A stretch of 64,000 nt of DNA from contig JAHJQO010000014.1 of NCBI GenBank assembly GCA_018819305.1, positions 34,832-98,831 of the forward strand, in the 5' to 3' direction. The position numbers were made by a program, and so were the translations under genes. How positions within the stretch are numbered: the first letter of the stretch is position 1; the number at the start of each line of letters is the position of its first letter. The notes under the pieces are model-generated. The model searched no databases, had not been told where the DNA came from, and saw nothing but the letters and a program-made list of their open reading frames with translations. The DNA comes from Nanobdellota archaeon (GTDB lineage: Archaea > Nanobdellota > Nanobdellia > Woesearchaeales > SM23-78). Shown piece after piece: positions 2,627 through 61,454 of this stretch.

Positions 2627-2914
2627 TTATTTTTCTTCTAATTCTTTTATTCTTTTTCTTACTTTAGCAACAAATTTCTTTTGGTCAAACTCTTTCTTTA
2701 TGGCTTTGGCAAGAACATCATCACCAAGAACCTCTAGAATCCAGCGGTAAAAATCATTTTTTTCCTTATTAAGATGATATTCAAAAGTCTTGCTGTCGCA
2801 TGCTTCAACATCATTTACAAGCTCATAGATGTTTCTGACAATAGTTCCATTTGTGAACCAGAAAGCCATGTGCGGCTGTGGAACATCTGAAAGCACTCTA
2901 TTGGGGTCTACCAC
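2627..2914 (-). CDS. Hypothetical protein carrying a ~60-aa conserved domain (WF...NDF..WI...LA motif). The same domain is found in the proteins at 20003..20650 and 20719..21102.
   Basis: Shared motif: HMAFWF...TFEYHL.KEKNDFYRWILEVLGDDVLAKAI aligns with ...NDFANWIEGVFGESVLAQ and ...NDFANWIEDIFKDMELAQ. Confidence 0.4.
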   Translation of the reverse strand: MVDPNRVLSDVPQPHMAFWFTNGTIVRNIYELVNDVEACDSKTFEYHLNKEKNDFYRWILEVLGDDVLAKAIKKEFDQKKFVAKVRKRIKELEEK

Positions 2915-3062
2915 TGAAATCTCACCTCTTATGAACTCTAATAATAATGAATATAAATAATATATATTACTTTATAATATAAATTTTTTGATAATTGATA
3001 ATAAAAAACGAAAGATTTAAGAGACTTAAAAGTCAAAAATTGACTATTAACAGAGAAATTGT

Positions 3063-29100: not shown

Positions 29101-29673
29101 ACTGATTGCTTTTTTGAGCTTTTTGTCAGATATAATTATTACTTTTTTAAAATCATCAGTGTAAAGAGAAACAGCATAAATTTGCTTGTGAGTGATGTCG
29201 GTTTCTATGTCTATGGATAAAACTTTTAGGTTTTTAGGTGTATAATCTGCTGGCTTGAGCTCAGGATCTAAATAAACCCTGTCAATTTCTTCTCCTTTTG
29301 CATAATTACCCTCAATTTCAAGGCTTCCCTGAAACCTGTGGTCATACATAAACCTGTATTCAAAGCGAATGTCTGCTTCATAACAGGAAATATTTTGTTC
29401 CAAGAGTTTGTTTCTCAATGGTTTTATTTGTGGAGGAACATGCATTATTATTTTTACAACAGGCTCTTCATCAAAAGTCTTGTATTTGGTTTCCTTGTAA
29501 TCAAACTTTTCAATTTCCAGGGCTGTGTTTAAATCTGATTGTTTTATAAAAAAATAAGGCCTGAACTCATTGATTGTTAAGAAAGATTCTCCATTCTGCA
29601 ATCTGCCAAATAGATATACATAAGCTTTACCATCCTTTATCTTATAAGTAGGATGAACAATAAACCCCTTCAT
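26194..29673 (-). CDS. polB: Family B DNA polymerase (archaeal PolB) interrupted by one intein.
   Basis: Exo I LSIDIETD, motif A DFKSLYPSII, motif B KILMNSFYGVLG, motif C split as VIYGD | intein | TDSIFV. Extein total ~772 aa. Confidence 0.9.
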   Translation of the reverse strand: MKGFIVHPTYKIKDGKAYVYLFGRLQNGESFLTINEFRPYFFIKQSDLNTALEIEKFDYKETKYKTFDEEPVVKIIMHVPPQIKPLRNKLLEQNISCYEADIRFEYRFMYDHRFQGSLEIEGNYAKGEEIDRVYLDPELKPADYTPKNLKVLSIDIETDITHKQIYAVSLYTDDFKKVIIISDKKLKKAISVADEKELIFKFQELLLKVNPDIITGWNLIDFDLKFLENKFSKYNIPFLLGRGNMKCSLRIFNSFFQDSRADFPGRMILDGIQVLKNNFIGLPNYKLETAAQHFLGTSKIFTGKNRFEQIENAYKKDQQLLVDYNLLDSKLAYDILYKSTALSLSIQRSLLTGMPLDRVRASIASLDSLYLKELRKKDYVAGTSTYNPDEAPGLGGFVMEPKPGIYDYVIVCDFKSLYPSIIRTFNIDPLSFVADCKGKNLVKAPNGACFKNQDGLLPIIIQRLWSQREKARKEKNEFARFAIKILMNSFYGVLGNNNCRFHNRDISNAITYFGQHFIKMTAQKVKDMGYEVIYGDSVAADSEVIVQDANGNVLYKNISDIFFKVDKRSSDGKSYSLNIPYSVLTIDSSGKSVFKPISYVMRHKVNKKMHRVYLTNSWFVDVTEDHSLIGYINKSKKAKLSDMDRLVEVKPNELGKNVKSVVSIKSVPHQKITTKGFSKEFYEFMGLFIGDGSFDSMKKKNYYLHLAAGLDQNEIIRKVIVPLKSQGWIRNYWKKPKGDICINGTKIVYFFNENLLRDKHKCIPEFIFNESNENIASFLRGLFSADGTVMIRNGSPIVRFTNTNKEFINQIQKLLQLISIPCSFFSETNKNKYCSVKSDTISLHIVVRDILSYNKFVGFVLNRKNKRLKKIPVNSKQKRTIRKYDFDISSVKRVEEILYKDYVYDLEVKDNHRFFANGVLVHNTDSIFVNLNVNNYADAQKIGNKIARIMNKFFEEHTQKDYKRKNYLELEFEKVYKRFLMPMARHSEKGSKKRYAGFIEDEKGKTKMDFVGLEFVRKDWTDIAKQFQQELLDRIFKKQEVAEYVKNIVEEIKNGKHDKSLIYRKSIRKGVAEYTKTTPPHVKAARLLGKELDGTLIEYVMTTAGPEPIQKQKHKIDYEHYIEKQIKPLADSVLGFYGQSFDDILAGSSQQTLFGFGKK
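26905..28065 (-). mobile_element. Intein (387 aa) with a LAGLIDADG homing endonuclease domain, inserted in polymerase motif C (YGD|TDS, the pol-c site).
   Basis: The intein starts with Ser (S537) right after YGD and ends ...VLVHN, followed by +1 Thr (TDS). The two dodecapeptides are EFMGLFIGDGSF and ASFLRGLFSADGTV. Confidence 0.8.
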
Positions 29674-29779: not shown

Positions 29780-30409
29780 TTATTTCTTGTTTTCAAACTG
29801 CTGTTTCATAGCCTCTCTAAACATTCTTCCCATTGCACCACTCATCATTGCTCCTTTAGTCAGATTATGCATCTCAATTACAAGCTTAGGATTTTTCTTT
29901 TTTTTGCCTATTTCAGATACATAATCACAAATATTGCTAATTGTTCTTTTAGCCTCAACCTCTTTTTCATTAAAGGTATATAACTCAAGGTCTTTAAGAT
30001 AACCAAAGAACTCTTTTTTTTCATTATCATTTAGATTTGCTTTGTGTCTTATTATTTTACCAACTGTCTGGCCTGCTTTTATACCTACATAAGTAGCTAT
30101 TCCTGTTTCAGCAGCAAGAGTTAAGTAAGATAAGGAATTCAGATCTTGATTTGTGTTGACAACACTCACCAAAAAAGCGTTTCCCATTGAAACTGCAGCT
30201 TCTAATTTAGAACGAGCAGAATTTAATTTATCATATTTTTTAATATCATTCTTATCACATTCTTCTGTCTTGTCGCAGTCTTCACATCCTTTATTTGCAT
30301 ATTCTGCTAAATCATGACTAAAACCAATTTTTCTGTCAGTATAAAATCCAAAAGCAAAACCACTGGCAAAACCATAAGCAGCGCCTCCAATTATTCTTTC
30401 AAGAGTCAT
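29780..30409 (-). CDS. Hypothetical protein, last gene of the E1/JAMM/AAA operon.
   Basis: Gly-rich hydrophobic N-terminus (GGAAYGFASGFAFGF) and Cys cluster CEDCDKTEEC. The start overlaps the upstream gene stop. Confidence 0.35.
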   Translation of the reverse strand: MTLERIIGGAAYGFASGFAFGFYTDRKIGFSHDLAEYANKGCEDCDKTEECDKNDIKKYDKLNSARSKLEAAVSMGNAFLVSVVNTNQDLNSLSYLTLAAETGIATYVGIKAGQTVGKIIRHKANLNDNEKKEFFGYLKDLELYTFNEKEVEAKRTISNICDYVSEIGKKKKNPKLVIEMHNLTKGAMMSGAMGRMFREAMKQQFENKK

Positions 30410-32031
30410 TTTTTAACCTCCATAAAAACCTTGTCAAGCTTTTCTGAAATCATGTTCAAAATAGGCGTTCTTGCTAAGTATTCTCCTACTTTTCCTTTGC
30501 TTTCAAAAGATTCTTTTATCTGCTCAAATGAATTGTTTCCTACTTTTTTCTTGGGATTTATTAATTCTACATGATTCCTCTGAATATCAAAAATATAAGG
30601 AGTTCCATGACGATCTCCTGTAAAATGATGAAACTCAATATCTATCTTTCCACCTCCATCTCTTTTAACATAACCCCAGCTACCATTTTTAGTATGAGTA
30701 TAATTATCTCCGCTCTTTACAATCTTAACTTTAACACCTGCTCTAAATACATCTTCTTGCTTTGCCTCTTCTAACAAGAACTGTGTGCAAAGATTCTCAT
30801 AACCATTATGATTCAACTTTTTAGGGAAAGTTTGATTATCCTTATTTATTGCAATTTCTAAATCACTAATTTTAAGACATTTAGTATCACCTTTAAAATT
30901 AATTTCCCATGTGGCTCCTGAATTGCATGTGCAAGAGTCAGTTTTTCCAATAATTCCTTTATACTCATCATAGTACTCACTGCCTTTTTTTACTCTTACT
31001 TTCAGGTTTTCCTTATGATCCTTTATTTTTGCTGGTTTAAAATAATAACCTGCTTCAAATTTAAACTCTGTTTGGTTAAGCTTCAATTCTGCTTGATTAG
31101 AATACTCTGATATCACTGCCTTAAATAGAGCTGCAAAATCTGGTTCTGCCCTATCATGCGCTCTCTTATGTTTATTTAATTCGTTATAAACATCATTCTT
31201 TGCAAATATACTGCGAACTATTTTTGGGTCATCAACAAGTTCAGATAAACATGCTGCCTGTTCATAAACATTCATATCATGACCAAACAGCTCAATCATG
31301 GCATTTTCAACTAATCCTTTGTTAACCTTTTCTTCATTTTTTATTGATTCCAATAATTTAAAATAGTTAGAGCATTCCCCTGCAAAGAACAGTTCAACTC
31401 CTTTGTACAGCATTTCATTGCTTGTTAATAATTTATCCTGTGATAACTCTAATAATCTATTTTTCACATCATCATTTCGTGCAGATGAAACGAGTTGAGA
31501 ATAGACTATTGTATTTGACAAATCATCAGGAGTATCCAACTTATCTACTTGTGAAGCAAGGAATGGTATTTTTTCTAAGAGATTCTGCGCAGCCATAGAT
31601 GAAATTACATTAGTACCTATGTACTGTAATACATGGGGCTCTATTTTTGCCTTTTTCACCTTATCTTTTTTTATATTTTTTGTATAATCCTTTAGGAGGT
31701 GAAGAGGTGATGTTTCTGGAGCTAATCTTGAAATTAAAGAATCATGGTTAGGTGTATATTTTAATCTTATGAAGTCTGAAAAAGCTTTTTCAGGATCCTT
31801 GGCAATCATTTGCTTTGCTTTTTTCTTATCAATGTCATTTGCAAAATAATATGCTAAACTTGTATCTGGGAGATTTGTTCCTGTTAACTCATCAAAACCG
31901 AATCTGGGTTGCTGTGCCTCCAGAATCTTTGATATTTTTCTAACTGGATTCATATCTGCTGCTAAAACAACTATTTCTTCAAGGGCTTCTTCTTCATTTA
32001 ACTCTTCTAACAAATCAATTTCATCATTCAT
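30406..32031 (-). CDS. Hypothetical 541-aa protein with an acidic N-terminus and C-terminal small beta-rich repeats (possible SH3/KOW-like) plus a CxC..C..C motif.
   Basis: Operon position. The repeated V(R/K)VK..KSG.. blocks and SCTCNSG...KCLK...LCTQ were seen directly in the sequence. Confidence 0.4.
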   Translation of the reverse strand: MNDEIDLLEELNEEEALEEIVVLAADMNPVRKISKILEAQQPRFGFDELTGTNLPDTSLAYYFANDIDKKKAKQMIAKDPEKAFSDFIRLKYTPNHDSLISRLAPETSPLHLLKDYTKNIKKDKVKKAKIEPHVLQYIGTNVISSMAAQNLLEKIPFLASQVDKLDTPDDLSNTIVYSQLVSSARNDDVKNRLLELSQDKLLTSNEMLYKGVELFFAGECSNYFKLLESIKNEEKVNKGLVENAMIELFGHDMNVYEQAACLSELVDDPKIVRSIFAKNDVYNELNKHKRAHDRAEPDFAALFKAVISEYSNQAELKLNQTEFKFEAGYYFKPAKIKDHKENLKVRVKKGSEYYDEYKGIIGKTDSCTCNSGATWEINFKGDTKCLKISDLEIAINKDNQTFPKKLNHNGYENLCTQFLLEEAKQEDVFRAGVKVKIVKSGDNYTHTKNGSWGYVKRDGGGKIDIEFHHFTGDRHGTPYIFDIQRNHVELINPKKKVGNNSFEQIKESFESKGKVGEYLARTPILNMISEKLDKVFMEVKK

Positions 32032-32043
32032 TTTACATCCTCA

Positions 32044-33558
32044 TTACATCCTCTTTCCATCCAAATAAACTTCTTTTATTATTTGGCCATCTACTTCTAT
32101 TTCCTTGATTTGAACTCTTTTTTTGTCAGGAAGCTCTAATGACTTTGCTTTTTTTGTATGACAATCACAAATAGATTCTAATTCACTCACTCCTCCTCTG
32201 GATTCAAAGTCAGAGATGTACTTGATTTCGCCATTTACAGGGCTGCCATAAATATCTGGTCTTAGCGCACACATGGCTTCCCCTATCATCAAAGCAGTGG
32301 CTATCTGGTTGATCATAATAACAGAAGGGTTGGGTGCTTGTATACAGCTAGTTCTCCTGATAATCTCAGCTCTGATAGCAAGGTCTGAAAGATTAATCTG
32401 GCAGTCAAAACATGAAGTTTCTCCTTGCTTATAAGCTAGAACTGTTGCTGCCCTATAATCTGTGCCTCCACTAATAATAGGGATGTTGTGTTTTTTTGCA
32501 TAATTATGAAGAATAGCCTTTGTGTAAAAACTATCCACTCCGTCAAAGATTAAATCATATTTTGTATCGAATTTGGATTTTTCTGTGAACTTATCAACAA
32601 TTGCATTTATCTGTGTTTTTCCTTTTGAAATCTTTTGCATAGTCTCTGCTATTCTTTCTGCCTTTAACTTGCCGACTGCATCATAAAAACTTACCTGCCT
32701 GTTGAGATTATGGTCTTCAACAACATCATAATCCATAACGTCAATTCTTCTCGGGCTTAAATTAGATATTGCTGCTGGTCCTAACAAGCAGCCCAGTGCG
32801 CCAGCTCCAACCATGAGAATATTCTTATCTTTGAAAGCATTAGCTATTACTTTTATCTCCTTGTCTGAAATATGACCAAAACGTTTATTTGATTCTAAAT
32901 TATAATTATAAATTATGTTTAAAGGCTCATCTTTTCTCATTAACAACTTCTTGACTTCCTCAGCCACCATTCCGCCTAGTTCTAAAGATACAAAATCACC
33001 TTGCTTTTTTCCTTCAAACATAGGCATTAACATAGCCAGGTTGTTTTCTCCGGCACCTGAAAAAGCAACTTTTCCATTATACTTATCAGCAGAAGAGCTA
33101 ATTATTGGAACGCCTTTTTTAAGATGATAATCTAAAACATGACTCTTTGATATCTTATCATTGGTTGCATCAACTATAACATGGCTTCCTTCTAAAAAAT
33201 ACTGAGCAGCAATAGTTGATAAATCAGAGTTTATTCCAATAACATTTACCTCTGGATTAATCTTCTTTAATGCTTGCTCAAGGCTTTGAGCTCTGGATTT
33301 TCCTTTTAGAGGCAAGTCAAGAAGCATATCATTTGCTGTTCCTTTGGCAGAATCAATTATTCTTATAGTGCCTACTCCTAAAGCTGCTAATGGCATGGCA
33401 ATGTACCTGGCAAGAACATCAGAGCCAATTATAGTAACAATTCCATTCTTCAGTTTCTCCTGATTCCAGTCCTTAATTAAGAGTTGCCTGTCATACCTGT
33501 GAATATTTTTTTCAATTTTTTCTTCAATATCTTCTAAAATGTCTTTTTTATATTTCAT
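32044..33558 (-). CDS. E1-like enzyme with tandem ThiF/MoeB-type Rossmann domains (a degenerate N-terminal domain plus a catalytic C-terminal adenylation domain) and C-terminal Cys motifs.
   Basis: Domain 1 (IIGSDVLARYIAMPLAALGVGTIRIIDSAKGTAND) lacks GxGxxG and the NLNRQ motif. Domain 2 has MVGAGALGC...VMDYDVVEDHNLNRQ. CxxC (SCFDC) and ICDC follow. Confidence 0.65.
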   Translation of the reverse strand: MKYKKDILEDIEEKIEKNIHRYDRQLLIKDWNQEKLKNGIVTIIGSDVLARYIAMPLAALGVGTIRIIDSAKGTANDMLLDLPLKGKSRAQSLEQALKKINPEVNVIGINSDLSTIAAQYFLEGSHVIVDATNDKISKSHVLDYHLKKGVPIISSSADKYNGKVAFSGAGENNLAMLMPMFEGKKQGDFVSLELGGMVAEEVKKLLMRKDEPLNIIYNYNLESNKRFGHISDKEIKVIANAFKDKNILMVGAGALGCLLGPAAISNLSPRRIDVMDYDVVEDHNLNRQVSFYDAVGKLKAERIAETMQKISKGKTQINAIVDKFTEKSKFDTKYDLIFDGVDSFYTKAILHNYAKKHNIPIISGGTDYRAATVLAYKQGETSCFDCQINLSDLAIRAEIIRRTSCIQAPNPSVIMINQIATALMIGEAMCALRPDIYGSPVNGEIKYISDFESRGGVSELESICDCHTKKAKSLELPDKKRVQIKEIEVDGQIIKEVYLDGKRM

Positions 33559-34916
33559 TTTTCTTTTTTCTCAACTTTTTCTTCAGGTCTATTTTCTTCT
33601 TTTTCTTTTATCTCTTTTTTCTCTCTTTCTTGTGCTTCTTTAGTCTTTAAGCCGTATTTACTCTGGAAATATGAATCCATAATCTGCATCTGCTCATCTC
33701 TTCTATATGATTCATCTAATTTAACCATCATCTTAACAAATGATTTTATTTCACCAATACTTGGATCATCTGTTCTTTTCTCATATTCATTTACTTTCCC
33801 CTCAAGAGTTTTTAGAAATGGCCTAGACAAGTAGAATGCGTTTTGATAAGTACCACCATAATGATTGTCATACTGAGCATAATATCCTTGAGCATCCCAT
33901 TTCTGTGCATTTGCACCAACAGAAACATACTTTCCTTTTTTGCCTTTAGCTCCTTTCCAGTTGACAAAAACCCATTTCTTAGGAAGATCAATATTAGCTT
34001 TGATTTCCTCTTCTAAAGACTGTCTTGTGACTTCTATGTCATTCTTAACAAAAACCTTTGAAATCTCTACTTTGTCAATTAATTCAGAGGAATTTCCTTT
34101 AGTAATAGCTTTTTCAGTGGAAAGTCCAATAGCGGTATAAGGCTTAATATTAGGTATGTTGCTCATAATAGCATAATAAGCAAAACCAAAAATATGAGAT
34201 TGATAATAATTTATTTGAGTTGTATCAAGTAATGAATTTAACAGATGAACAGCTTTGTCCTTTGCATTTTCCTTTTGAAAATCAACACCATTTCTTTTTA
34301 AAATTCTTTCCAAGCGCTTATCATGGTTCAGAACATACTCAATTATTGCATCATCTACAGATCTACCAGAAAACCTTATTCTTCCGTTTTCTCTGTTCTT
34401 TGTAATCTGAGTTTCAATAAGTTTTAATGGAATATTAATGTGTTGTTCTGTGTTAAGGCTGACAGAATTCAGCACAGTTTCAAAGTTTTCCATATCCACA
34501 CTTGAAGGTCCTAAGTGGCGTGCATCTCCATGGCCATGAGGCCAACCAATAATATATAAATTGCTTCCATTTGCATTGTTTTTTTCCTCTAACTGATTAT
34601 TTGCTTTAGCCACATCATCTCCGCTAATCTTAACAGTTCCAAGAGTGATATCCTGGCCTTTCTGTATCAAAAGATCACGTATAACATAATTAGGGTCTCC
34701 TTGTTGTGTTAGAAAATATGCTGACCATTCATAGTCTCTGCCAGTAAGCTCTTTTATAAGAGGACCTATCATCTCTAATTTCTTATGCGCCCCTAATGTG
34801 ATTGGCATTTTTTTAGGAATTAAATCTTTTGGAGATACTATCCTTTTTTCATGATTGTTCTCTGCTTGCACAAGCAGTTCATCAAGTTCATCAAATTGTT
34901 GTTCATTATTTTTCAT
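33555..34916 (-). CDS. Protein with a central JAMM/MPN+-like metalloprotease motif (candidate deubiquitinase-like isopeptidase). K/E-rich C-terminal tail.
   Basis: YIIGWPHGHGDARHLGPSSVD matches GWYHSHP.......SSVD (HxHx7-8Sx2D), with Glu residues upstream (LEEK). Confidence 0.45.
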   Translation of the reverse strand: MKNNEQQFDELDELLVQAENNHEKRIVSPKDLIPKKMPITLGAHKKLEMIGPLIKELTGRDYEWSAYFLTQQGDPNYVIRDLLIQKGQDITLGTVKISGDDVAKANNQLEEKNNANGSNLYIIGWPHGHGDARHLGPSSVDMENFETVLNSVSLNTEQHINIPLKLIETQITKNRENGRIRFSGRSVDDAIIEYVLNHDKRLERILKRNGVDFQKENAKDKAVHLLNSLLDTTQINYYQSHIFGFAYYAIMSNIPNIKPYTAIGLSTEKAITKGNSSELIDKVEISKVFVKNDIEVTRQSLEEEIKANIDLPKKWVFVNWKGAKGKKGKYVSVGANAQKWDAQGYYAQYDNHYGGTYQNAFYLSRPFLKTLEGKVNEYEKRTDDPSIGEIKSFVKMMVKLDESYRRDEQMQIMDSYFQSKYGLKTKEAQEREKKEIKEKEENRPEEKVEKKEK

Positions 34917-34917
34917 T

Positions 34918-36267
34918 TTAACCTCTATTCCAATCCCATCTGTTTGTTATTAACAGACCTTTTTTCTTAGCCTTCTCAATAGTAGTCTTTCTTGGAGATA
35001 GCTTTTTATCTAATGAATCACCAAAATATTCACCACCATCTCTTTCATCACCACCATGCCCTCTTATGCTATGTGGTGTTAAACCGTGCATAATTAAGTT
35101 TTTAGCATCATCAAGCGCCTTTGCAACCCATTCAACATTACTGCCATTTCTTGAGGGAACATTCCCCCCGCAAAGACCTTGAAAAGCTTGATTCTTATTC
35201 GATGTAAATGGATGCCATTCAGGTTCAAAGAGTTCAGGTTTATCCAAATAAATATCTCCGTCATATTGGATTCTCAATCCCACTCTTAATCTTGGAAATT
35301 CATAACAAACACCTTTCTTAGTTGGTCTTGGATCTAGCATTGCAAAAGGAGGTATTATCTGGTAAACATAGACGCTTCCATCTTTTCTTAAGAAACCAAC
35401 ATCACCATCATTAAACTCCTTAAGCTTTATAATTCCATCAAAGTCCTTTAATGCCTTTAGTCTGGTCCTCTGCACATCCTTAATGTAATCAGAAAATTCG
35501 TCAATGGCTTCTATCTTTGCAGTCCATTCCAAGAAATCAGAGTAATTCTTTTCTATATTCTCAACTTTTGCAAGAGGTAATAATTCTGATTTTTCAGAAA
35601 CTCCATTAAGACAGATTTCTAACTGGGATTGATTACCATTTGAATTTGCTAGCTGATAAACTTTTTCACCAAGAGTCAATATATTTTTTCCCTGTATTAC
35701 ATCTAAGAAATGAGTGACTTCATCTTTTGCAGTTCCATTAAAATTCTTTTTTGCATAATCCTGCTGCTGTGCATACAGCTTTCTTTTAACCTCTTCAATA
35801 CTTCCAAGCAATTCTTTTTCATCGACTTCTTTAGAATCCTTTTTCCTTTGTTTATTTACTTCATCACCTAGTAAAGCAGATAAATCCTCTTTATGCCCGC
35901 TCATGTAGGGCATTAATTCTTTTATTATAAAAGAAAAAAGCTTTCTGTCTCCTATCTCTCTTTCTCTTTGCTCAGCAGTCTGAAATCCTTTGTCAACCTT
36001 ACTCTCAATAAAAGCTTTTTTTAGAGCAAATATCTCATCTTCATTTATATGATTGTAGAATCTGACTAAATCATCCAGATTACCAGCAGGAACCAAACCC
36101 AGTTTAACATTTGAGCCAGAAAACCCAATATAATTATCTCTGTGATTGCCCTTATTACCTTCTTTATAGTTTGGTTTATAGTTTGGGCTAACAAGATAAA
36201 CCTCTTTACCTCTAATAAGGAGAGGTCCTCTTGATGCGAGTTCTGAAAAAAAGGTTTGAAGTTTCAT
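34918..36267 (-). CDS. Hypothetical 449-aa protein. The C-terminal region has a pattern reminiscent of the UBC (E2) fold (tentative).
   Basis: YEFPRLRVGLRIQYDGDIYLDKPELFEPEWHPFTSNKNQAFQGLCGG....W resembles EFP..YP..PP.V.F....HPN.....G.IC...W. Confidence 0.35.
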   Translation of the reverse strand: MKLQTFFSELASRGPLLIRGKEVYLVSPNYKPNYKEGNKGNHRDNYIGFSGSNVKLGLVPAGNLDDLVRFYNHINEDEIFALKKAFIESKVDKGFQTAEQREREIGDRKLFSFIIKELMPYMSGHKEDLSALLGDEVNKQRKKDSKEVDEKELLGSIEEVKRKLYAQQQDYAKKNFNGTAKDEVTHFLDVIQGKNILTLGEKVYQLANSNGNQSQLEICLNGVSEKSELLPLAKVENIEKNYSDFLEWTAKIEAIDEFSDYIKDVQRTRLKALKDFDGIIKLKEFNDGDVGFLRKDGSVYVYQIIPPFAMLDPRPTKKGVCYEFPRLRVGLRIQYDGDIYLDKPELFEPEWHPFTSNKNQAFQGLCGGNVPSRNGSNVEWVAKALDDAKNLIMHGLTPHSIRGHGGDERDGGEYFGDSLDKKLSPRKTTIEKAKKKGLLITNRWDWNRG

Positions 36268-36331
36268 GTCATTTCCTCTTTATCTTTTATTTTTCCTGTT
36301 GGTTGAAATCCTTTTATCTTAACATAATATT

Positions 36332-36760
36332 TTATCTTAACATATAATCAATACTTTTTTTTGCGCCTTCCTGTCTTGCAGCTACAATTATCTCTGCTTC
36401 AAGATACTCTCTTCCTGCTGTAGAAGTTGCGTCTCTAAGATAATCTGTAATTTTTTCTGTTCCTTTTATTGCCTGACCATTAACAGAAATACCATACTTA
36501 TCTTTCATCTCTATTCTAATTTTGTCTTGGTAACGAAGTTGCTCTCTTGTAAACCCGTCTTCTTCTCCTAATTCCAAAGCATGGCTAACAATCTTATCTA
36601 TCGACATGTCAGCCATGTGGTCAGGTAACAAAAACCTCAATGACTTCTCTGCCGCTGTCCCTGGCTTGACCCTTACAATTACTGGTTTATTTGCATCAGG
36701 TAAGTCTGCGCCTTTATCTCCTGTTGTTCTATTATCTTTTTTCTTTTTTTGTTCTAACAT
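36332..36760 (-). CDS. Small protein (142 aa) with a disordered basic N-terminus. Candidate modifier or adaptor of the operon. No C-terminal GG.
   Basis: Operon position between the AAA ATPase and the E2-like gene. PVIVRVKPG and ISVNGQAI segments are beta-grasp-like, but this is weak. Confidence 0.35.
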   Translation of the reverse strand: MLEQKKKKDNRTTGDKGADLPDANKPVIVRVKPGTAAEKSLRFLLPDHMADMSIDKIVSHALELGEEDGFTREQLRYQDKIRIEMKDKYGISVNGQAIKGTEKITDYLRDATSTAGREYLEAEIIVAARQEGAKKSIDYMLR

Positions 36761-36773
36761 TTTTTTTGCCTCC

Positions 36774-38258
36774 TTAAATTATATTTCTAATATCTTTGAT
36801 TTGGTCATAGCGATCATTTGCTATTGAACGAATATCTGATTCAGTTAATGATCTCTTTACGTTTTGCCCCATTTCTTTGAATTCAGCATCTATTGCTCTT
36901 AGCAAATCTGATAACCCCAAACCTTTATCGTGTGAATTACCCTTGCCATTGCCAATTTCTCTTTTTATTGCATAATCAGCTGCTCTCTGGACACTGGCCT
37001 CAATAATTGCGCCACTAACAAGATTCTTATATCTTACTGGTTCTGATGTTTGATCATAGAATTCCATTAAAGCAAGTACGCTCTCATCTGAGAATAATTT
37101 TTTTACACCTTCAGATGATAAGTAGTCTACTTCTGGAAAACCAGCTTTTTTTGCTGCTTTTCTTAATTCCCTGTTAAAGGGCATGTCTTTTAGATAAATA
37201 TCATAAATCTGCTTAGCACCTTTATCATTAGGTCTTGGAATTTCCAGTTTTCTATCAATTCTTCCAGGCCTTAAAACTGCAGGGTCTATCATATCCTCCC
37301 TGTTGGTTGCCATGACAAGAACAACATTGTAATTTGAATCAAGACCATCCATCTCTGCCAGGAACTGAGGAACTATGGAATCATAGATATCTGTGGATAT
37401 ACCACTTCCTCTTCTTTTGAAAACTGATTCTGCCTCATCAATAAATATTACGACTGGCTCATTGGTTTCAGAACTCTTGTCTCTTGCACTTGCAAATATT
37501 TGCCTGATTGTTTCTTCTGATGCTCCGACATATTTGTTTAATATTTCTGGTCCTTTGATGTTCAGAAAGTAGCCGTTTTGATTATTGCCTGTTCTGGCTG
37601 CTATTGACTTTGCAAGATTATAAGCCATTGCTTTTGCCACAAGAGTCTTTCCACATCCTGGAGGACCGTAAAGCAACACTCCCTTTGGAACCCTCTTATT
37701 ATATTTCTTATAGAGATCCTTGTGCAAAAATGGTGTCTCAATAACATCTTTTATTGTCTCTATAATATGATCTAATCCACCTACTTTGCTCCATGGAATT
37801 TCAGGTACTCCTTCTAAAGTAAATCTCTTGTTTTGTTTTCCAAGGTTATCTAGAACTACAGATTCACTATCATCAATAACTACACAGTCTCCTCTTTTTG
37901 CACCATTATTTCCATAAAGGATGGTTTGATTACCGTTTATGTTTACTTTGACTCTATTATTATCTAGAACTTCGCTAACAACAACAACATTTCCTTCTTT
38001 TCTTGGATCAGATACATCTACAATAGCATAATTATTATTTAAAGAAACACTTTTCCCTCTTTGCAGTTTGTCCTTCATTCTAGGATTATACGATACCTCA
38101 TAAGTTTGATTTCCAACTATCACTTCAACTTTTTTATCAAATACCTCTGTAATAATTCCTTTTCTAAGCGGCGGAAGTGATAATGATTTGATAATCTCTT
38201 CTTGGTCTGCAATTTCTTCTTCAAGCTTTGAAACTCTTTCTCTTAGATCTTGAGTCAT
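36774..38258 (-). CDS. AAA+ ATPase of the ARC/Mpa/PAN type: N-terminal coiled coil, tandem OB-like domains and an AAA module (proteasome-associated-ATPase-like unfoldase).
   Basis: Coiled coil RERVSKLEEEIADQEEIIKSL. Two OB-like beta segments. GVLLYGPPGCGKTLVAKAMAYNLAKS, GYFLNIKGPEILNKYVGASE, VIFIDEAESVF and ATNREDMIDPAVLRPGRIDRKLEIPRP are strikingly Mpa/ARC-like. Confidence 0.8.
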   Translation of the reverse strand: MTQDLRERVSKLEEEIADQEEIIKSLSLPPLRKGIITEVFDKKVEVIVGNQTYEVSYNPRMKDKLQRGKSVSLNNNYAIVDVSDPRKEGNVVVVSEVLDNNRVKVNINGNQTILYGNNGAKRGDCVVIDDSESVVLDNLGKQNKRFTLEGVPEIPWSKVGGLDHIIETIKDVIETPFLHKDLYKKYNKRVPKGVLLYGPPGCGKTLVAKAMAYNLAKSIAARTGNNQNGYFLNIKGPEILNKYVGASEETIRQIFASARDKSSETNEPVVIFIDEAESVFKRRGSGISTDIYDSIVPQFLAEMDGLDSNYNVVLVMATNREDMIDPAVLRPGRIDRKLEIPRPNDKGAKQIYDIYLKDMPFNRELRKAAKKAGFPEVDYLSSEGVKKLFSDESVLALMEFYDQTSEPVRYKNLVSGAIIEASVQRAADYAIKREIGNGKGNSHDKGLGLSDLLRAIDAEFKEMGQNVKRSLTESDIRSIANDRYDQIKDIRNII

Positions 38259-39074: not shown

Positions 39075-40448
39075 ATGTTAAATTACAAAAATGACTCCTT
39101 ATTATTGAACAAAGAAACTGCTAACGATTTAATTAGAAATAAGAATACTGACTTCATTTTTATCGATAAAGAAAAGAAAATATTGAATTTATTCTCGGCT
39201 TTTGTAAAAAAAGATGACTTCATTAAGAAAGATGAACTATGTCAACCGCTACAAAAAACCATTTATGTGAAAATAACTCAAAAACTCTTAAATAAAATTA
39301 AAAACAGATTCAAAGATAAAAAAGAAATTATAATAATTCTAGAAAAATATACTGATCGAAGAATTGTCACAAAAGAAGGGGTTAATAGATGGTTTAACAC
39401 CAGAATAATTCCTTTTATTCTTTTAAGAATATTAAGCAAAGATAATGAAGAATTTGCAGAATTCATAAAAGAAATTGATTACATTACTGATTTCTTAAAT
39501 AAAAGCAAATTTTACTGTCCGAAAACATTAGATGAATTATTAACACCAAAAATATTTTATCTCTGTGGATGCTCAGTTGGAGACGGTCATATAGATAAAA
39601 CAGGCAAAAGATGGGTTTTGGTGGATGGAAGCTCTAACAAAGAAAGATTACTTCAATCTCACAAATTCGTAGTTAACTTATCAAATTTACTTGAAAATTT
39701 AGGGATGAAATCAAGTATAAAATTAAAGAAAACAAAATGTATTTTAACAGCAAATAACAAACCTTTTTGTAGGTTTCTAAACTTCTTCTTTGGCTTGCCT
39801 TATGGAAAGAAAAAAGAAGTTGTATTAAGAAAACCAATTATACTAAATCAGAGTAAGAAAGATTTAGAAAAATACTTCTGGAGAGGATGTTTTGACACAG
39901 ACGGGAGTGTGAATAAAGATGGTACAATAGATTTATGTTCTTCAGATAATAATCTACTAACTGAATGTGAATCATATTTGGAAAACATAGGTATTAAAAC
40001 AAAAAAAAACAATATATTAATTACCATTAATATTCAAGAACTAAAGAAATTCACACAAATCGGTTTTGCTCATCAACGAAAACAAAAAGAATTCTTAAAA
40101 ATACTTAGACGAGGATTAAAACAGGAAAAAATGAATATAAGAGACAGTGAAAAGGTAGATACAAATTTATCAAGGATACATGATTTAATAAGAATCGATG
40201 GCAACTACAGAATAAGAATTCACAGAAGAAACCTTAAAAAGAGCGATATTGATGAAGAGGGAATAAGAAAAATCATTAAAGAAATGTTTGGATATGATCT
40301 AAAAGAAACAAGGAAATTACTTTATTTCAAATCCAAAAAAGTATATGAATACTTAAATAAGCGTCTTAAATCAGAGTCATATTGGAAACCTATAAATACT
40401 CAAGAAGAAGCCCAATTATTAGAAGAATGGAATGAGGTTTGGAATTAA
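39075..40448 (+). mobile_element. Free-standing LAGLIDADG homing endonuclease gene (457 aa). Its stop abuts the ABCE1 start (TAAATG).
   Basis: The two dodecapeptide motifs are IFYLCGCSVGDGHI and YFWRGCFDTDGSV, ~110 aa apart. No intein splicing blocks (no N-terminal C/S, no terminal HN). Confidence 0.7.
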
Positions 40449-53287: not shown

Positions 53288-53815
53288 ATGAGCAACACGA
53301 ATAGGTTCTGGCAAATTAGAATGAGTACATGTTATTTTTAGCAATTTCTTTGTGTCTTCCAGATTTATACCAACATGCTGAACATAAATATCATCTATCT
53401 TAACTGGCTTTGGCATCTTCTTAATAATATCAATTTTTTTATCCATGCGAAGGCCTTTTAATGCAGCAAATATTTTTTTATAATCGGGATGATCTCGGAT
53501 GACAATAATCACAGGAATCTTTAATTCTTTGTTCAGAACAACAGGATTAATCACATTAAAGCCAGCAACAGCAATTCCTTTCAAAAAAATAGCTTGAATC
53601 TGTGGTCTGAACTTAGAATCCTTAACCATCTCAATTATTCTAAGAGTTGCATCTTCTCCATCTTTCTTAACATTACAAGAAAGAAGACCGTCCATAAAGT
53701 TGCCGCCTCGAAAAAGAGTAGCAACAACTCTCACATATTTCTGCAGAGGGTCAAACTTATCAAAGCAAGTGTCTGCAATTCCTAAAACACGGAGTTCTTT
53801 TTTTAGTTTATTCAT
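53252..53815 (-). CDS. Conserved archaeal hypothetical protein (possibly the UPF0215/DUF99 family).
   Basis: Length ~187 aa. The pattern is weak, so the assignment is low confidence. Confidence 0.3.
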   Translation of the reverse strand: MNKLKKELRVLGIADTCFDKFDPLQKYVRVVATLFRGGNFMDGLLSCNVKKDGEDATLRIIEMVKDSKFRPQIQAIFLKGIAVAGFNVINPVVLNKELKIPVIIVIRDHPDYKKIFAALKGLRMDKKIDIIKKMPKPVKIDDIYVQHVGINLEDTKKLLKITCTHSNLPEPIRVAHLIASGLSEGQS

Positions 53816-54591
53816 TTTAACTTCCTAACAAATGTCAAGAAAGCTGTATGCCCATGGTCTTTTGTTTTTGGCCTGCTTCTCTTGGCATCAACAGCCCATT
53901 CTCTCTCAATAACCTCAATTGTTTTTTCTATTAATAATTCTTCAGGTAATTCTTTGACAAAATCCTGCACCTGAGTAATGTTTGGAAGATAAATAACCAG
54001 AAATCCGCCAATCTTTAGCACTTTTTGTGCTGTCTTTATTGCTTTCCCAGGATCAGGAACATCAAGCACAAATATATCTATATTTTTCTCATTAATCTTT
54101 GTATAAGAATATATGTTGCCTTCTTTAACAGTGATGTTCCTTAAGCCCAAAGATTGAATGTTTTCTGTGGTGGTTTCAAGACTGGATTTATCAATATCAT
54201 AAGATATAACTTTCTTGGCAAGCATTGCAAGAAAACAAGCAATTGCACCTGAACCAGAACCAGCATCAAGAACAACAGAATCTTTTGTAATGCCTGTGTT
54301 AGCAATAATTGCACCAATATCTTTAAGTGTGATTATCTGCGCCATTCTTTTAATGCGCTTGTAATGGTCAAGAAAAACAGGGTCAAGAATAATAAATTCA
54401 TGGTTTTTGACTTTTACAACAGAGCCTGCTTTTTTTAGCAGGTCTTTCTTAGATATTATTCCATGTTTTGTGTGAAAATCCTTGTCAGCATCAACATAAT
54501 GCTTTTCAAAACCGGAAATAACTCTCTCTTTATCATCCACTTGAATTTTTTTCTCTTTTTTAATCAGGATTTTCTTTTTTGCCATTTTCAA
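53812..54591 (-). CDS. tRNA (adenine-N1)-methyltransferase, TrmI/Gcd14-like.
   Basis: SAM motif VLDAGSGSGAIACFLAML and DIFVLDVPDP (cf. TrmI FLDLPAPW). N-terminal beta-barrel-like region. Confidence 0.55.
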   Translation of the reverse strand: MKMAKKKILIKKEKKIQVDDKERVISGFEKHYVDADKDFHTKHGIISKKDLLKKAGSVVKVKNHEFIILDPVFLDHYKRIKRMAQIITLKDIGAIIANTGITKDSVVLDAGSGSGAIACFLAMLAKKVISYDIDKSSLETTTENIQSLGLRNITVKEGNIYSYTKINEKNIDIFVLDVPDPGKAIKTAQKVLKIGGFLVIYLPNITQVQDFVKELPEELLIEKTIEVIEREWAVDAKRSRPKTKDHGHTAFLTFVRKLK

Positions 54592-54606
54592 GAATAGTAA
54601 AAGGAG

Positions 54607-54709
54607 AGCGGGAGGGGAGACTCGAACTCCCGATCAGTGGGTTGCAGCCACTTGCCTTAGCCGCTTGGCCTTAGGAAAAAACCTCAAAAATGATAGTCTT
54701 TACTCCCGC
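54607..54709 (-). tRNA. tRNA-Cys (anticodon GCA) with a ~31-nt non-canonical intervening sequence between nt 9 and the D-stem (approx. 54670..54700). The mature length is ~72 nt; CCA is not encoded.
   Basis: Acceptor GCGGGAG/CTCCCGC (7 bp), U8A9, D-arm GCCA-AGCGGCTA-AGGC, anticodon arm AGTGG-CTGCAAC-CCACT (anticodon GCA), variable GATC, T-arm GGGAG-TTCGAGT-CTCCC, discriminator T. The 5' acceptor strand is separated from the D-arm by 31 nt. Confidence 0.6.
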
Positions 54710-54714
54710 AAAAA

Positions 54715-55440
54715 CTAAGGTCGCTCTCCTGCTAAAGCAGACAAAAGCTTTATCTGCTTATTGGGTGTGTTAAAGCCTATATATTTATAAAAGTTTCCGA
54801 AAGAAGACTTCTCTATTTCAAAACGCATCTCTACACTTTGAGAACCGTCTTTTCTAATATTTAGATTCCAATATCTAATAGGGGAAGCCTTAATATAAAA
54901 ATTATTTAACAAAGATCTTATTTGACTCAAGAATCGTAAGCCATCATCTAATAAATCTTTATTTTTACAAAAAGTCAAAGAGATTCGCCACCGTACATAA
55001 TTCTTATATTGCTTTGTGAAAAAAATTGAACCTTCGCAATCAAACAAACTTCTAAGATAAGCACTTTTTATTTCATTAGAACCATTTATAATCCACCCCG
55101 GAACTTGAAAAGGAGTGTTTGTTTTGTTACCTTTAGGAACACCAACTCGTTTAAGAAACAAAGCAGTTGATTTAGAAATAAAGAATAATTTATACCTTAA
55201 GTTAAGAGTTATAACTTTTTTGCCCGGACTTCTATCTTCATATATTCTTCCTTCAACATCAAATACTTTTTTAAATAATTTTTTAACTCTATTTATTTCA
55301 TCTAAATCTTTTGAATAAAAAGAAGTTAGATACCTCCATTCTTTTATTTGCAAATGACCATCTGAAGTTATAAGTGCAGCTATTTGTGCAAGTTCTAGAG
55401 TTAATTTATTTTTCATCTCGCCCCGAGTTGATGAAAGCAT
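54715..55440 (-). mobile_element. Free-standing LAGLIDADG homing-endonuclease-like gene (241 aa), directly upstream of the intron-containing tRNA-Cys.
   Basis: Dodecapeptides LAQIAALITSDGHL and AYLRSLFDCEGSIF are ~110 aa apart. The stop is 5 nt from the tRNA 5' end. Confidence 0.6.
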
Positions 55441-55558: not shown

Positions 55559-56161
55559 TCATTTCTTTCTTGCATTCTTGATTGCTTGGTCTAGGTCATT
55601 TTTAGAAATCTTATGTTTTCTGAATTTTTTTTGTATTTCTTCAGATAATTCTTTGAATTTCTTTTTTAGAGCAATTTTTTTCAGTTCGCTTCTATACTTC
55701 TCAATTTCATTATTAGTAATATTAGAAACAATCTCATCAAACAATGATACAAATAATTTTGCTTCTTTAAGTATTTGTTTAACCTGTGCTTCTTTACCAA
55801 TTTTTATATAATATTGGGCATCTATTCTTTTTTCTTTGTGTTGATTTACCACATTTATTTTATCATCTCCTAATAAAAAACCTACTGCTGATATTGAACA
55901 AGAATGAATCTCGCAGTTAACACCTATTTTTTGCAGAAAAGAGTATAATGCATAATAATCTGCATAATAGATAACTACAGTACTCCAGAGCAAGTCATTG
56001 TCTTCAAAATCCTTTTCTGCTCTTTTTAATGATGATTTAGCTTCTTTTAGATACAAATCCGAAAGTCTTTTGTTTGGCTCAACTATTCTTAATCCATCTT
56101 TAATTCCAAAACACCAACTCAATTTCTTATCCTGCATAGTAACTCCACATATTATCAACAT
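55559..56161 (-). CDS. HEPN-like domain protein (partner of the adjacent nucleotidyltransferase). Assignment is tentative.
   Basis: Helical N-terminus with a HEPN-like register (LKEAKSSLKRAEKDFEDNDLLWSTVVIYYADYYALY) and a KRIDAQYY (R-x4-Y) region. It overlaps the upstream NTase gene. Confidence 0.35.
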   Translation of the reverse strand: MLIICGVTMQDKKLSWCFGIKDGLRIVEPNKRLSDLYLKEAKSSLKRAEKDFEDNDLLWSTVVIYYADYYALYSFLQKIGVNCEIHSCSISAVGFLLGDDKINVVNQHKEKRIDAQYYIKIGKEAQVKQILKEAKLFVSLFDEIVSNITNNEIEKYRSELKKIALKKKFKELSEEIQKKFRKHKISKNDLDQAIKNARKK

Positions 56162-56714
56162 AAAAAGAATGATTGTTTAGGATGACATGATTTTCTTCTA
56201 TCTCTTTTATTATTGTTTCTTGTTGGCTTAGTGATTTTATAAAAGTTGCTTCTGTCATATCAATCTTATGAAGTTCGTATGGAAGCAGATGAAGAGGTAA
56301 TTTTAATTCATTCATTGATATTTTTAATAAATCCAAATCTGAATTCTTATCTGCTTTGAATCTAGCAAAGCTTCCAAAAATAATTAAAGGAGTTAATGTT
56401 TTAATTTCTTTTAGAAAGGTTTTGAATACAGGATATTTTTCCAGGAACAAGAATGTTTTATATATCTCTGCTTGTAAAAGATAGAATTTTGTTTGTATAT
56501 TGCTTAAATTTAGTTTAAAGTATTTATTTTTTCCTTCCTGGCTTCCTATAAGTATGTTTTTTTGTTCAAGTTCTTTTATCTTGTTCTGTGTTGTCTTAAG
56601 AGGTGTCTTTGTTAATCTGCTTATTTCCCTTAGGTAAAACTGTTTCTTATAATCGTTTAGGTATAGCATTATTATCCCAAGTTCTTTGTTTCTTTTTAGA
56701 TACATATGTATCAT
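56127..56714 (-). CDS. wHTH plus minimal nucleotidyltransferase (MNT) domain protein (MNT-HEPN toxin-antitoxin-like module).
   Basis: NTase motif IIFGSFARFKADKNSDLDLL (GS...x9-13 DxD). N-terminal HTH: LREISRLTKTPLKTTQNKIKELEQKNILI. Confidence 0.6.
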   Translation of the reverse strand: MIHMYLKRNKELGIIMLYLNDYKKQFYLREISRLTKTPLKTTQNKIKELEQKNILIGSQEGKNKYFKLNLSNIQTKFYLLQAEIYKTFLFLEKYPVFKTFLKEIKTLTPLIIFGSFARFKADKNSDLDLLKISMNELKLPLHLLPYELHKIDMTEATFIKSLSQQETIIKEIEENHVILNNHSFYVDNMWSYYAG

Positions 56715-61374: not shown

Positions 61375-61379
61375 AAAAG

Positions 61380-61454
61380 TGAGCCCGAGGGGATTCGAAC
61401 CCCTGACCTTCGGCTTAGAAGGCCGACGCCCTATCCAGGCTAGGCTACGGGCCC
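61380..61454 (-). tRNA. tRNA-Arg (anticodon TCT), 75 nt, no encoded CCA.
   Basis: Acceptor GGGCCCG/CGGGCTC (one GU). D-arm GCCT-AGCCTGGATA-GGGC. Anticodon arm TCGGC-CTTCTAA-GCCGA. Variable AGGTC. T-arm AGGGG-TTCGAAT-CCCCT. Discriminator A. Confidence 0.85.

Follow-up and report, generated by a model that had tools for sequence, protein, structure and literature searches.

Outline of the interrupted gene

In the stretch of archaeal DNA analysed here (64,000 nucleotides (nt) of contig JAHJQO010000014.1, hereafter the window), the gene for tRNA-Cys(GCA) is most probably interrupted by a 31-nt archaeal bulge-helix-bulge (BHB) intron located between U8 and G9, a reading that, judged from the sequence and from that of its relatives, can be held with a probability of roughly 0.85. 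The gene, complete but for the interruption by the 31-nt insert, is read on the minus strand from nt 1 (a G, at 54709) to the discriminator U73 (54607) and is made of, in this order, GCGGGAGU, AAAGACUAUCAUUUUUGAGGUUUUUUCCUAA, GGCCAAGCGGCUAAGGC, A, AGUGG, CUGCAAC, CCACU, GAUC, GGGAG, UUCGAGU, CUCCC, CUCCCGC and U. It is taken to be functional and is probably single-copy. The hallmarks of the class are present, namely, an archaeal host, a 3-4-3 motif at the junctions and an excision that would give a canonical tRNA, and the case is one of an ordinary archaeal intron class in an uncommon position, not of a new mechanism. The host is a tiny DPANN (Woesearchaeota-type) archaeon from groundwater, the proteins of the window and their homologues carrying the source labels Nanoarchaeota or Woesearchaeota archaeon; in such a host, introns are expected to be removed by protein-catalysed BHB splicing.

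A preliminary description of this DNA had reported a tRNA-Cys at 54607-54709 with an insertion of about 31 nt. These coordinates stand, except that the strand has to be given as minus, and the insert is exactly 31 nt long. The complete set of cloverleaf parts and the 5' strand complementary to CTCCCGC were also found as described: the heptamer GCGGGAG is found a single time on each strand of the 64 kb, and its expected chance count in a 60-nt interval is ~0.0008. Both exons are collinear within 103 nt in all, the anticodon GCA corresponds to positions 54645-54643, CCA is not encoded in exon 2, and the identity features of the spliced tRNA-Cys (U73, GCA and A13-A22) are intact. The 151 nt spanning the locus are 100% identical in four independent assemblies (the NCBI metagenome-assembled genome, ENA and two from Logan), so that the locus is not an assembly artefact.

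The interruption affects detection by the tRNA finders. ARAGORN made no call on the interrupted tRNA-Cys, intron options included, and its sole call in the whole window was the tRNA-Arg(UCU) at 61379-61454(-); when relaxed thresholds were added to the intron options, it returned spurious calls, such as a tRNA-Phe with a 553-nt intron, which were discarded. The Rfam tRNA model RF00005 gave a partial match at 54615-54670(-), covering model positions 9-63 with 34.4 bits, above the gathering score, and tRNA was the only family matched by Rfam within the window. In turn, once 30-32 nt were deleted from the interval that separates the D-stem from the 5' acceptor strand, ARAGORN called tRNA-Cys(gca) at its default thresholds. 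The interrupted tRNA-Cys reported earlier is thus confirmed.

The predicted splice register and its BHB motif

All junction pairs were scanned for a 4-bp central helix formed by exon nt p-5..p-2 and intron nt -6..-3, flanked by 3-nt bulges, with the cut falling after the second nucleotide of each bulge. Four registers removing 31 nt were compared (7/8, 8/9, 9/10 and 10/11), and all four central pairs form in 8/9 alone. In this register the last nucleotide of exon 1 is U8 and the first of exon 2 is pre-tRNA nt 40; the central helix consists of G3·U37, G4-C36, G5-C35 and A6-U34, with G7-U8-A9 and A38-A39-G40 as bulges, the outer pairs are G1-C42 and C2-G41 (extended by the leader, as discussed below), and the inner helix has at least 4 bp. 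Accordingly, the intron is laid out as an inner hairpin (nt 10-32) followed by UCCU (nt 34-37), the partner of exon nt 3-6 in the central helix. Scored as central, outer and inner pairs, register 8/9 yields (4,2,4), as opposed to (2,1,3) for 9/10 and (3,0,4) for 7/8, and the strict hBHBh' motif (3-nt bulge, 4-bp helix, 3-nt bulge) is present in 8/9 only.

The same BHB fold was found by RNAfold, unaided, in the first 45 nt. Shuffled introns fulfilled the central and inner pairing in 1.4% of the trials, and in 0.2% when an inner helix of the observed length was demanded. Moreover, the same cleavage rule, applied to relatives with canonical introns, recovered the junctions exactly at 37/38 in L044 (4,5,1) and L054 (4,6,1), which validates the cleavage convention. 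Splicing at 8/9 would create the mature junction GCGGGAGU joined to GGCCAAGCGG, and the 20-mer across it, GCGGGAGTGGCCAAGCGGCT, is not in the genome; the junction expected from a 9/10 splice is GCGGGAGTAGCCAAG.

The preliminary description had placed the intron at 9/10, after U8-A9. That the intron is real and leaves at another junction, either at 9/10 (with U8-A9-G10 in the product) or as a 30-nt version, is now very unlikely. ARAGORN accepts several registers, so that the sequence alone does not separate 8/9 from 9/10, and A9 is present in some relatives (L019, L071 and L076); however, 9/10 has just two of the four central pairs, and the closest uninterrupted relatives have U8-G9. In the 30-nt register exon 1 also ends at U8 and four central pairs form too, but it was set aside because the acceptor stem and the D-stem would then be separated by one nucleotide too many.

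Orthologues and conservation of the interrupted allele

Loci for comparison (L numbers) were gathered through homologues of TrmI, the product of the gene directly downstream, from 80 species-level genome loci, and through a pattern scan of metagenomes. In many Woesearchaeota the tRNA-Cys gene lies directly upstream of the TrmI gene, and the uninterrupted orthologues at this syntenic site (L011, L024, L098, L100, L104 and others) read N7-U8-G9 followed by GCCAAGCGG or GCCAAGCGGCUAAGGC; L011, for instance, has GCAGGAG-U-G-GCCAAGCGG (GCAGGAGUGGCCAAGCGG). Their U8-G9 junction is the ligated sequence predicted for 8/9, which supports splicing in this register and, together with the archaeal host and the strict 3-4-3 motif, bears out the earlier proposal of a BHB-type intron at a non-canonical, 5'-proximal position. 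Between the acceptor strands, exon 2 of the window is identical to the uninterrupted L100 and L104, starting at G9 and running through the whole T-arm.

Among the loci collected, the form interrupted at 8/9 occurs in three related lineages only: the window, L005/L006/L097, and L093. The intron reads AAAGACUAUCAUUUUUGAGGUUUUUUCCUAA in the window, AGAAACUCUCGUUUUUGAGGUUUUUUCCUAA in L005 and AGAAACUCUCGUAUUUGAGGUUUUUUCCUAA in L093. In the alignment of the three variants, 90/90 pair cells are standard pairs; two pairs of the T-stem are changed on both sides (G-C to A-U and A-U to G-C) among the intron-bearing lineages, and three pairs of the inner helix show a one-sided change (A-U to G·U or the reverse). 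Of the five matches to the metagenome pattern AAGGCCAAGCGGCTAAGGC, two (L093 and L097) are genuine intron-bearing tRNA-Cys genes and three (L094-L096) are unrelated chance or repeat matches. No further 8/9 intron was found among the 80 TrmI loci, and the closest TrmI homologues, looked up additionally, had only uninterrupted or 59/60-intron tRNA-Cys genes; consequently, no covariation within the BHB could be obtained.

Between the window and the L005 lineage the intron is identical at 27/31 positions (87%), while the TrmI protein is 78% identical and the four-fold degenerate sites 39%, and an identity of 27/31 under neutrality has P ~4e-8. Judged by this comparison, the interrupted allele is maintained or recently transferred, not decaying. 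The preliminary description had allowed for a decayed pseudogene accompanied by a canonical tRNA-Cys elsewhere. Such a gene would have been hit by an insertion of 31 bp, with its role served by another tRNA-Cys of the cell. In favour of this, tRNA finders make no call, the Rfam match is partial, and the inspection for a second copy covered 64 kb of the genome. This possibility is nevertheless very improbable indeed: an intron conserved at 87% as against 39% at neutral sites, together with the compensatory T-stem changes, argues that the allele is not a pseudogene, and it occupies the orthologous slot in which relatives keep their tRNA-Cys, retains intact exons with every identity feature, and carries an insert flanked by a precise 3-4-3 BHB.

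Other classes of element were discarded as well. A tRNA pseudogene left as an integrase att-site remnant does not agree with the full-length exons, the orthologous slot and the compensatory changes. A self-splicing group I intron needs a ribozyme core of ~200 nt or more in the anticodon loop, and the insert has 31 nt at 8/9. Finally, the exons of a split or permuted tRNA gene would not be collinear within 103 nt.

The 5' leader and the fold of the precursor

The sequence preceding the gene, denoted here as the leader, contains segments that are conserved among the intron-bearing alleles despite their differing upstream genes, and whose pairing would favour the BHB conformer. In the window, AGGAGAGCG (54722-54730) is predicted to pair with CGCUCUCCU (54602-54610) at the 3' end, the portion GGAGAGCG being complementary to C70-U73 plus CUCC of the trailer; CCUUAG (54715-54720) pairs with CUAAGG of the D-arm (54655-54660), and the run of five U (54710-54714) with AAG/GG of exon 2. 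The pairing of CCUUAG and the U-run lengthens the outer helix of the BHB to ~13 bp. The leader of L005 reads GGAGAGCG-UU-CCUUAG-C-UUUUU (L005:3866-3877) and that of L093 AGCGGGGG-AUUAAU-CCUUAG-C-UUUUU (L093:~929-952). The trailer of L093 is devoid of CUCC, and its AGCGGGGG pairs with C66-U73, so that the helix between the leader and the 3' end is kept. In addition, the TATA-like box typical of these genes (CTTTATTAA) is present in L005 at an upstream distance that exceeds the one in uninterrupted relatives by ~23 nt, which is consistent with a longer leader.

Folding energies were computed with either the BHB fold or the acceptor stem enforced. For the window, the two values are -26.8 and -38.9 kcal/mol, respectively, without leader and trailer, and -47.0 and -44.2 kcal/mol with a 24-nt leader and an 8-nt trailer. 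With flanks of the same lengths they are -50.9 and -47.2 kcal/mol for L005 and -45.1 and -44.1 kcal/mol for L093, and the unconstrained minimum free energy structure of L005 is essentially the BHB fold. That the leader acts as a chaperone, holding the precursor in the splicing-competent fold, is a model whose chances can be put at about even.

The folds also bear on a further alternative, in which the insert would be retained and the tRNA would work with an additional hairpin separating the acceptor stem from the D-arm. The unconstrained fold of the bare pre-tRNA does retain three arms (acceptor, anticodon and T) and has the insert in a hairpin of its own, but the D-arm is mispaired in it, and both the precise BHB and the complementarity of the leader would be left unexplained. 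Positions 8-9 of tRNA belong to its conserved core, and we know of no precedent for a tRNA functioning with a retained insert there. This alternative is extremely improbable.

Proposed route of processing

Returning to the BHB intron at 8/9, its removal can be pictured as follows. The primary transcript would begin with a 5' leader of at least ~20 nt and end in a short 3' trailer. In this precursor, G3-A6 would pair with UCCU at the 3' end of the intron (the central 4 bp) and not with the 3' acceptor strand; G1-C2 would pair with G10-C11 of exon 2, and the U5 and CCUUAG segments of the leader would zip onto the D-arm region, conforming the outer helix. The remaining intron would fold as the hairpin of the inner helix, leaving G7-U8-A9 and A-A-G9 as 3-nt bulges, and the 5' end of the leader would pair with the 3' acceptor end and the trailer, thus blocking competition by the 3' strand for the 5' acceptor strand. 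EndA, the archaeal splicing endonuclease, would then cut after the second nucleotide of each bulge, and a ligase of the RtcB type would join ...GAGU to GGCC.... Leader removal by RNase P, trimming of the trailer and addition of CCA would follow, giving a 72-nt tRNA-Cys with U73, A13-A22 and the GCA anticodon. The leader belongs to the BHB scaffold, and for this reason splicing should come before its removal by RNase P; the whole order of processing is predicted from this model of the fold.

Several points weigh against an intron processed in this manner. Once the leader is left out, the cloverleaf-like fold is favoured over the BHB conformer by ~12 kcal/mol, and the model therefore depends on a leader whose extent, like its transcription, is predicted. 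Starting from one candidate TATA-like element of the window, the resulting leader would be too short for GGAGAGCG. The core of the BHB (central helix, bulges and the outer pairs of G1 and C2) is invariant in the three variants, so the motif is devoid of covariation, and the high identity of the intron could reflect recent lateral transfer rather than constraint. Regarding copy number, no second tRNA-Cys was seen in the 64-kb window, the sole portion of the genome searched. Neither EndA nor RtcB is among the 50 ORFs (open reading frames) of the window scanned with Pfam, and splicing itself, that is, cleavage and ligation, is predicted from the sequence of the locus. EndA has been reported in DPANN generally (PMC5829648).

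The adjacent LAGLIDADG gene and a possible mobility of the allele

As the preliminary description had pointed out, a LAGLIDADG ORF adjoins the gene. This ORF is free-standing, lies outside the intron, and its stop codon is found 5 nt before tRNA nt 1. In L093 an ORF that is 71% identical has the same arrangement (L093:220-936), and the LAGLIDADG gene of L005 is another one, with an identity of 24% and the opposite orientation (L005:2963-3730(-)). Both types also occur beside uninterrupted tRNA-Cys genes (L019, 2-433; L022, 2011-2754(-); L049), and homologues are likewise found beside tRNA-Cys genes with other introns (L054 and L079). Because such ORFs also adjoin uninterrupted genes, the LAGLIDADG ORF is not specific to the 8/9 intron, and neither is the link between both that had been hinted at earlier. 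LAGLIDADG ORFs of the two distant types (24% identity) recur at the tRNA-Cys/TrmI locus of many Woesearchaeota, L050 included, which gives this locus the appearance of a favoured landing site of homing-endonuclease genes.

The TrmI proteins of two 8/9-intron lineages are 77% identical, with uninterrupted lineages interleaved at 81-85% (P0001, P0002, P0005-P0007 and P0009), and their exon-2 bodies match different neighbours, that of the window being equal to the uninterrupted L100 and that of L005 to the uninterrupted L098. The interleaving and the differing matches suggest either repeated loss or lateral spread of the allele. A search for a copy of the intron elsewhere in the window yielded only a chance match with three mismatches.

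One could go further and regard the leader, exon 1 and the intron as a mobile cassette that spreads between Woesearchaeal lineages, possibly by means of the adjacent LAGLIDADG endonuclease, with the intron shielding the host tRNA gene from cleavage ('collaborative homing'). The patchy distribution of the allele would fit this idea, as would the fact that the window and L005 lineages are not mutual closest relatives by TrmI identity, the 87% identity shared over leader, acceptor stem and intron despite saturated synonymous sites, the match of the exon-2 bodies to different uninterrupted neighbours, and the presence of LAGLIDADG ORFs beside the gene in every intron-bearing lineage with upstream sequence available. 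However, both LAGLIDADG types are found next to uninterrupted genes as well (L019, L022, L049), those of the two intron-bearing lineages are 24% identical and oppositely oriented, the window has no further copy of the intron sequence, the resolution of the TrmI tree is poor (identities of 77-85%), and no target site of the endonuclease is known. The cassette is, in consequence, unlikely.

Both ideas can be combined in a leader that is a built-in chaperone, masking the 3' acceptor strand and clamping exon 2, within a co-adapted module that is laterally mobile, perhaps with LAGLIDADG genes. The combination is unlikely. If it were true, the chaperone leader would enforce splicing before the action of RNase P, and the intron, by disrupting the target of the endonuclease, would represent the BHB-intron analogue of 'collaborative homing'.

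Other disrupted tRNA genes in the order

Disruption of tRNA genes is frequent in this order. An ARAGORN-callable tRNA-Cys lies within 3 kb of TrmI in 30 of the 80 species loci, and the tRNA-Cys is interrupted in at least 12 of the 80. Introns at the 37/38 position are found in L020, L044, L054, L079 and L088, and T-loop introns at 59/60, of 29-49 nt, in L014 (~2867-3000), L043 (~2219-2330) and, additionally, L101 (~1110-1215; the same as L102). The 59/60 motif is relaxed, with 4 central and 5 outer bp and no inner helix. An apparent double insertion, in the anticodon loop (37/38) and in the T-loop, was recognized by eye in L029, L046, L055 and L056. Lastly, L057 (2090-2200) carries an insert of ~34 nt in the 3' strand of the D-stem, GGCUAAG-uuguugcgaacuccuuuuggucguagcuuaguaa-GCGACC, its Rfam match starting at model position 7; in all other respects its tRNA-Cys equals the uninterrupted gene of L076. 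Since the order carries these other non-canonical tRNA introns, its splicing enzyme must handle such substrates.

Some of the tRNA-Cys introns contain box C/D-like elements (GGGAUGAUGAGC ... CUGA). They are present in the 37/38 introns of L054 (~2881-3010), L055 (~2115-2260), L079 (~1632, minus strand) and L029 (~2839-3000). The tRNA-Trp intron of Euryarchaeota holds a box C/D guide RNA, which these introns resemble.

Disruption also affects the tRNA-Arg(UCU) gene near TrmI. In L050 (2033-2170) it shows two non-canonical insertions, in the anticodon stem and in the T-arm, in L088 (2737-2850) one in the T-loop, and in L101 (~966-1058) and L104 (~302-395) one in the D-loop. The tRNA-Arg(UCU) of the window is uninterrupted.

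Relation to known systems

The non-canonical positions of archaeal introns that have been reviewed are 20/21, 22/23, 25/26, 29/30, 30/31, 45/46, 53/54, 56/57 and 59/60, with 3/4 as the extreme (PMC4090602). The intron of the window is similar to the non-canonical BHB introns of Thermoproteales, Thaumarchaeota and Nanoarchaeota in being short and ORF-less, in its 3-4-3 motif outside the anticodon loop, and in that its removal restores the cloverleaf. Unlike those reviewed, its host is a mesophilic DPANN archaeon (Woesearchaeota), and both exon 2 and the 3' end appear to be pairing partners of the leader. Position 8/9 is absent from the list of the review, a comparison made at review level and not against primary tables (PMC4090602).

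The closest parallel with regard to the isoacceptor is the pre-tRNA-Cys(GCA) of ARMAN-2 (Micrarchaeota, DPANN), whose 13-nt intron at 59/60 is cut in vitro by the epsilon2 EndA (PMC3239211). Both genes share the isoacceptor, the superphylum and a non-canonical position, and the relaxed 59/60 motif of ARMAN-2 recurs, in position and type, in the relatives L014, L043 and L101. In contrast, the intron of the window is located at 8/9, has 31 nt and shows a strict hBHBh' instead of a relaxed hBH motif. DPANN EndAs with an extra L3 loop have been associated with increased disruption of tRNA genes, and the incomplete tRNA sets of DPANN genomes point to undetected disrupted genes (PMC5829648).

As in the split tRNA genes of Nanoarchaeum equitans and Caldivirga, sequence outside the mature tRNA would pair to build the BHB (PMC4090602, PMC4390854). 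Here, however, both exons are on one transcript, splicing would occur in cis, and the helper would be the gene's own 5' leader.

With respect to the neighbouring ORF, the arrangement recalls that of T4-like phages. In their collaborative homing, an ORF-less intron is accompanied by a neighbouring free-standing homing endonuclease gene, and here too an ORF of a homing-endonuclease family adjoins a gene with an ORF-less intron. The differences are that the intron is of the BHB and not of the group I type, that the ORF is also found beside uninterrupted genes, and that targeting of tRNA-Cys is unsupported.

Significance

ARAGORN does not see the only tRNA-Cys candidate of this locus and Rfam sees just half of it, and genes of this kind would make DPANN genomes appear to be without tRNA-Cys, distorting both estimates of completeness and claims on reduced translation capacity or host dependence. 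Because introns near the 5' end need flanking sequence for their motif, tRNAscan-SE 2.0 extends its candidates by 60 nt in order to catch introns near the ends (PMC8450103). Position 8/9 would be a 5'-proximal addition to those where BHB introns are tolerated, so that one isoacceptor, in one archaeal order with uninterrupted sister lineages, would be interrupted at no fewer than four places (8/9, D-stem, 37/38 and 59/60). The locus may also offer a compact case of a leader sequence that helps to present a splice motif, and its intron-plus and intron-minus alleles at a syntenic site are material for studying intron gain or loss.

Coordinates and neighbouring genes

Table 1. Parts of the interrupted tRNA-Cys gene and adjoining features (window coordinates).
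Feature	Position	Strand	Remarks
LAGLIDADG ORF, free-standing, directly upstream	54715..55440	-	241 aa; Pfam LAGLIDADG_3, E = 6.8e-11
Conserved 5' leader, AGGAGAGCG-A-CCUUAG-UUUUU	about 54710..54730	-	overlaps the 3' end of the LAGLIDADG ORF (last codons and stop)
Exon 1 of tRNA-Cys(GCA), GCGGGAGU	54702..54709	-	5' acceptor strand (nt 1-7) and U8; complementary to CUCCCGC, 54608-54614
5' BHB bulge, G7 U8 A9	54701..54703	-	predicted cut U8/A9; register p=8, q=40
Putative BHB intron, AAAGACUAUCAUUUUUGAGGUUUUUUCCUAA	54671..54701	-	31 nt, pre-tRNA nt 9-39; from BHB scan, folds and orthologues without the insert
3' BHB bulge, A38 A39 G40	54670..54672	-	predicted cut A39/G40; G40 = mature G9
Exon 2	54607..54670	-	G9, D-arm, anticodon arm, 4-nt variable loop, T-arm, 3' acceptor strand, U73
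3' trailer, CUCCUUUU	54599..54606	-	CUCC pairs with the leader; U-run is the likely terminator
TrmI gene, GCD14-type tRNA (m1A57/58) methyltransferase, directly downstream	53812..54585	-	Pfam GCD14; synteny anchor

The genes of the window, whose G+C content is ~33%, include, as identified by Pfam, an intein-bearing PolB, a PAN-type AAA ATPase, Endo_dU, TrmB regulators and the GCD14/TrmI tRNA methyltransferase, which is called as 257 aa in L001. Elements of the homing-endonuclease type are abundant across the 64 kb: the intein of the family-B DNA polymerase (26194-29673(-)) has a LAGLIDADG domain, and a separate 457-aa ORF at 39075-40448(+) carries a LAGLIDADG_3 domain.

A HEPN and a nucleotidyltransferase (Polbeta/NTP_transf_2) ORF, which overlap, lie at 55559-56714(-), between a gene for DNA-alkylation repair and the LAGLIDADG ORF. 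They make up a typical toxin-antitoxin pair (HEPN/MNT) that is missing from the matching site in L005 and L009. Further away, a run of ORFs on the same strand (29780-38258(-)) contains a ThiF/E1-like protein (32044-33558), a proteasomal-ATPase-like AAA protein (36774-38258) and five ORFs with no Pfam match (209, 541, 453, 449 and 142 aa), and it could correspond to a ubiquitin-like modifier or conflict system.

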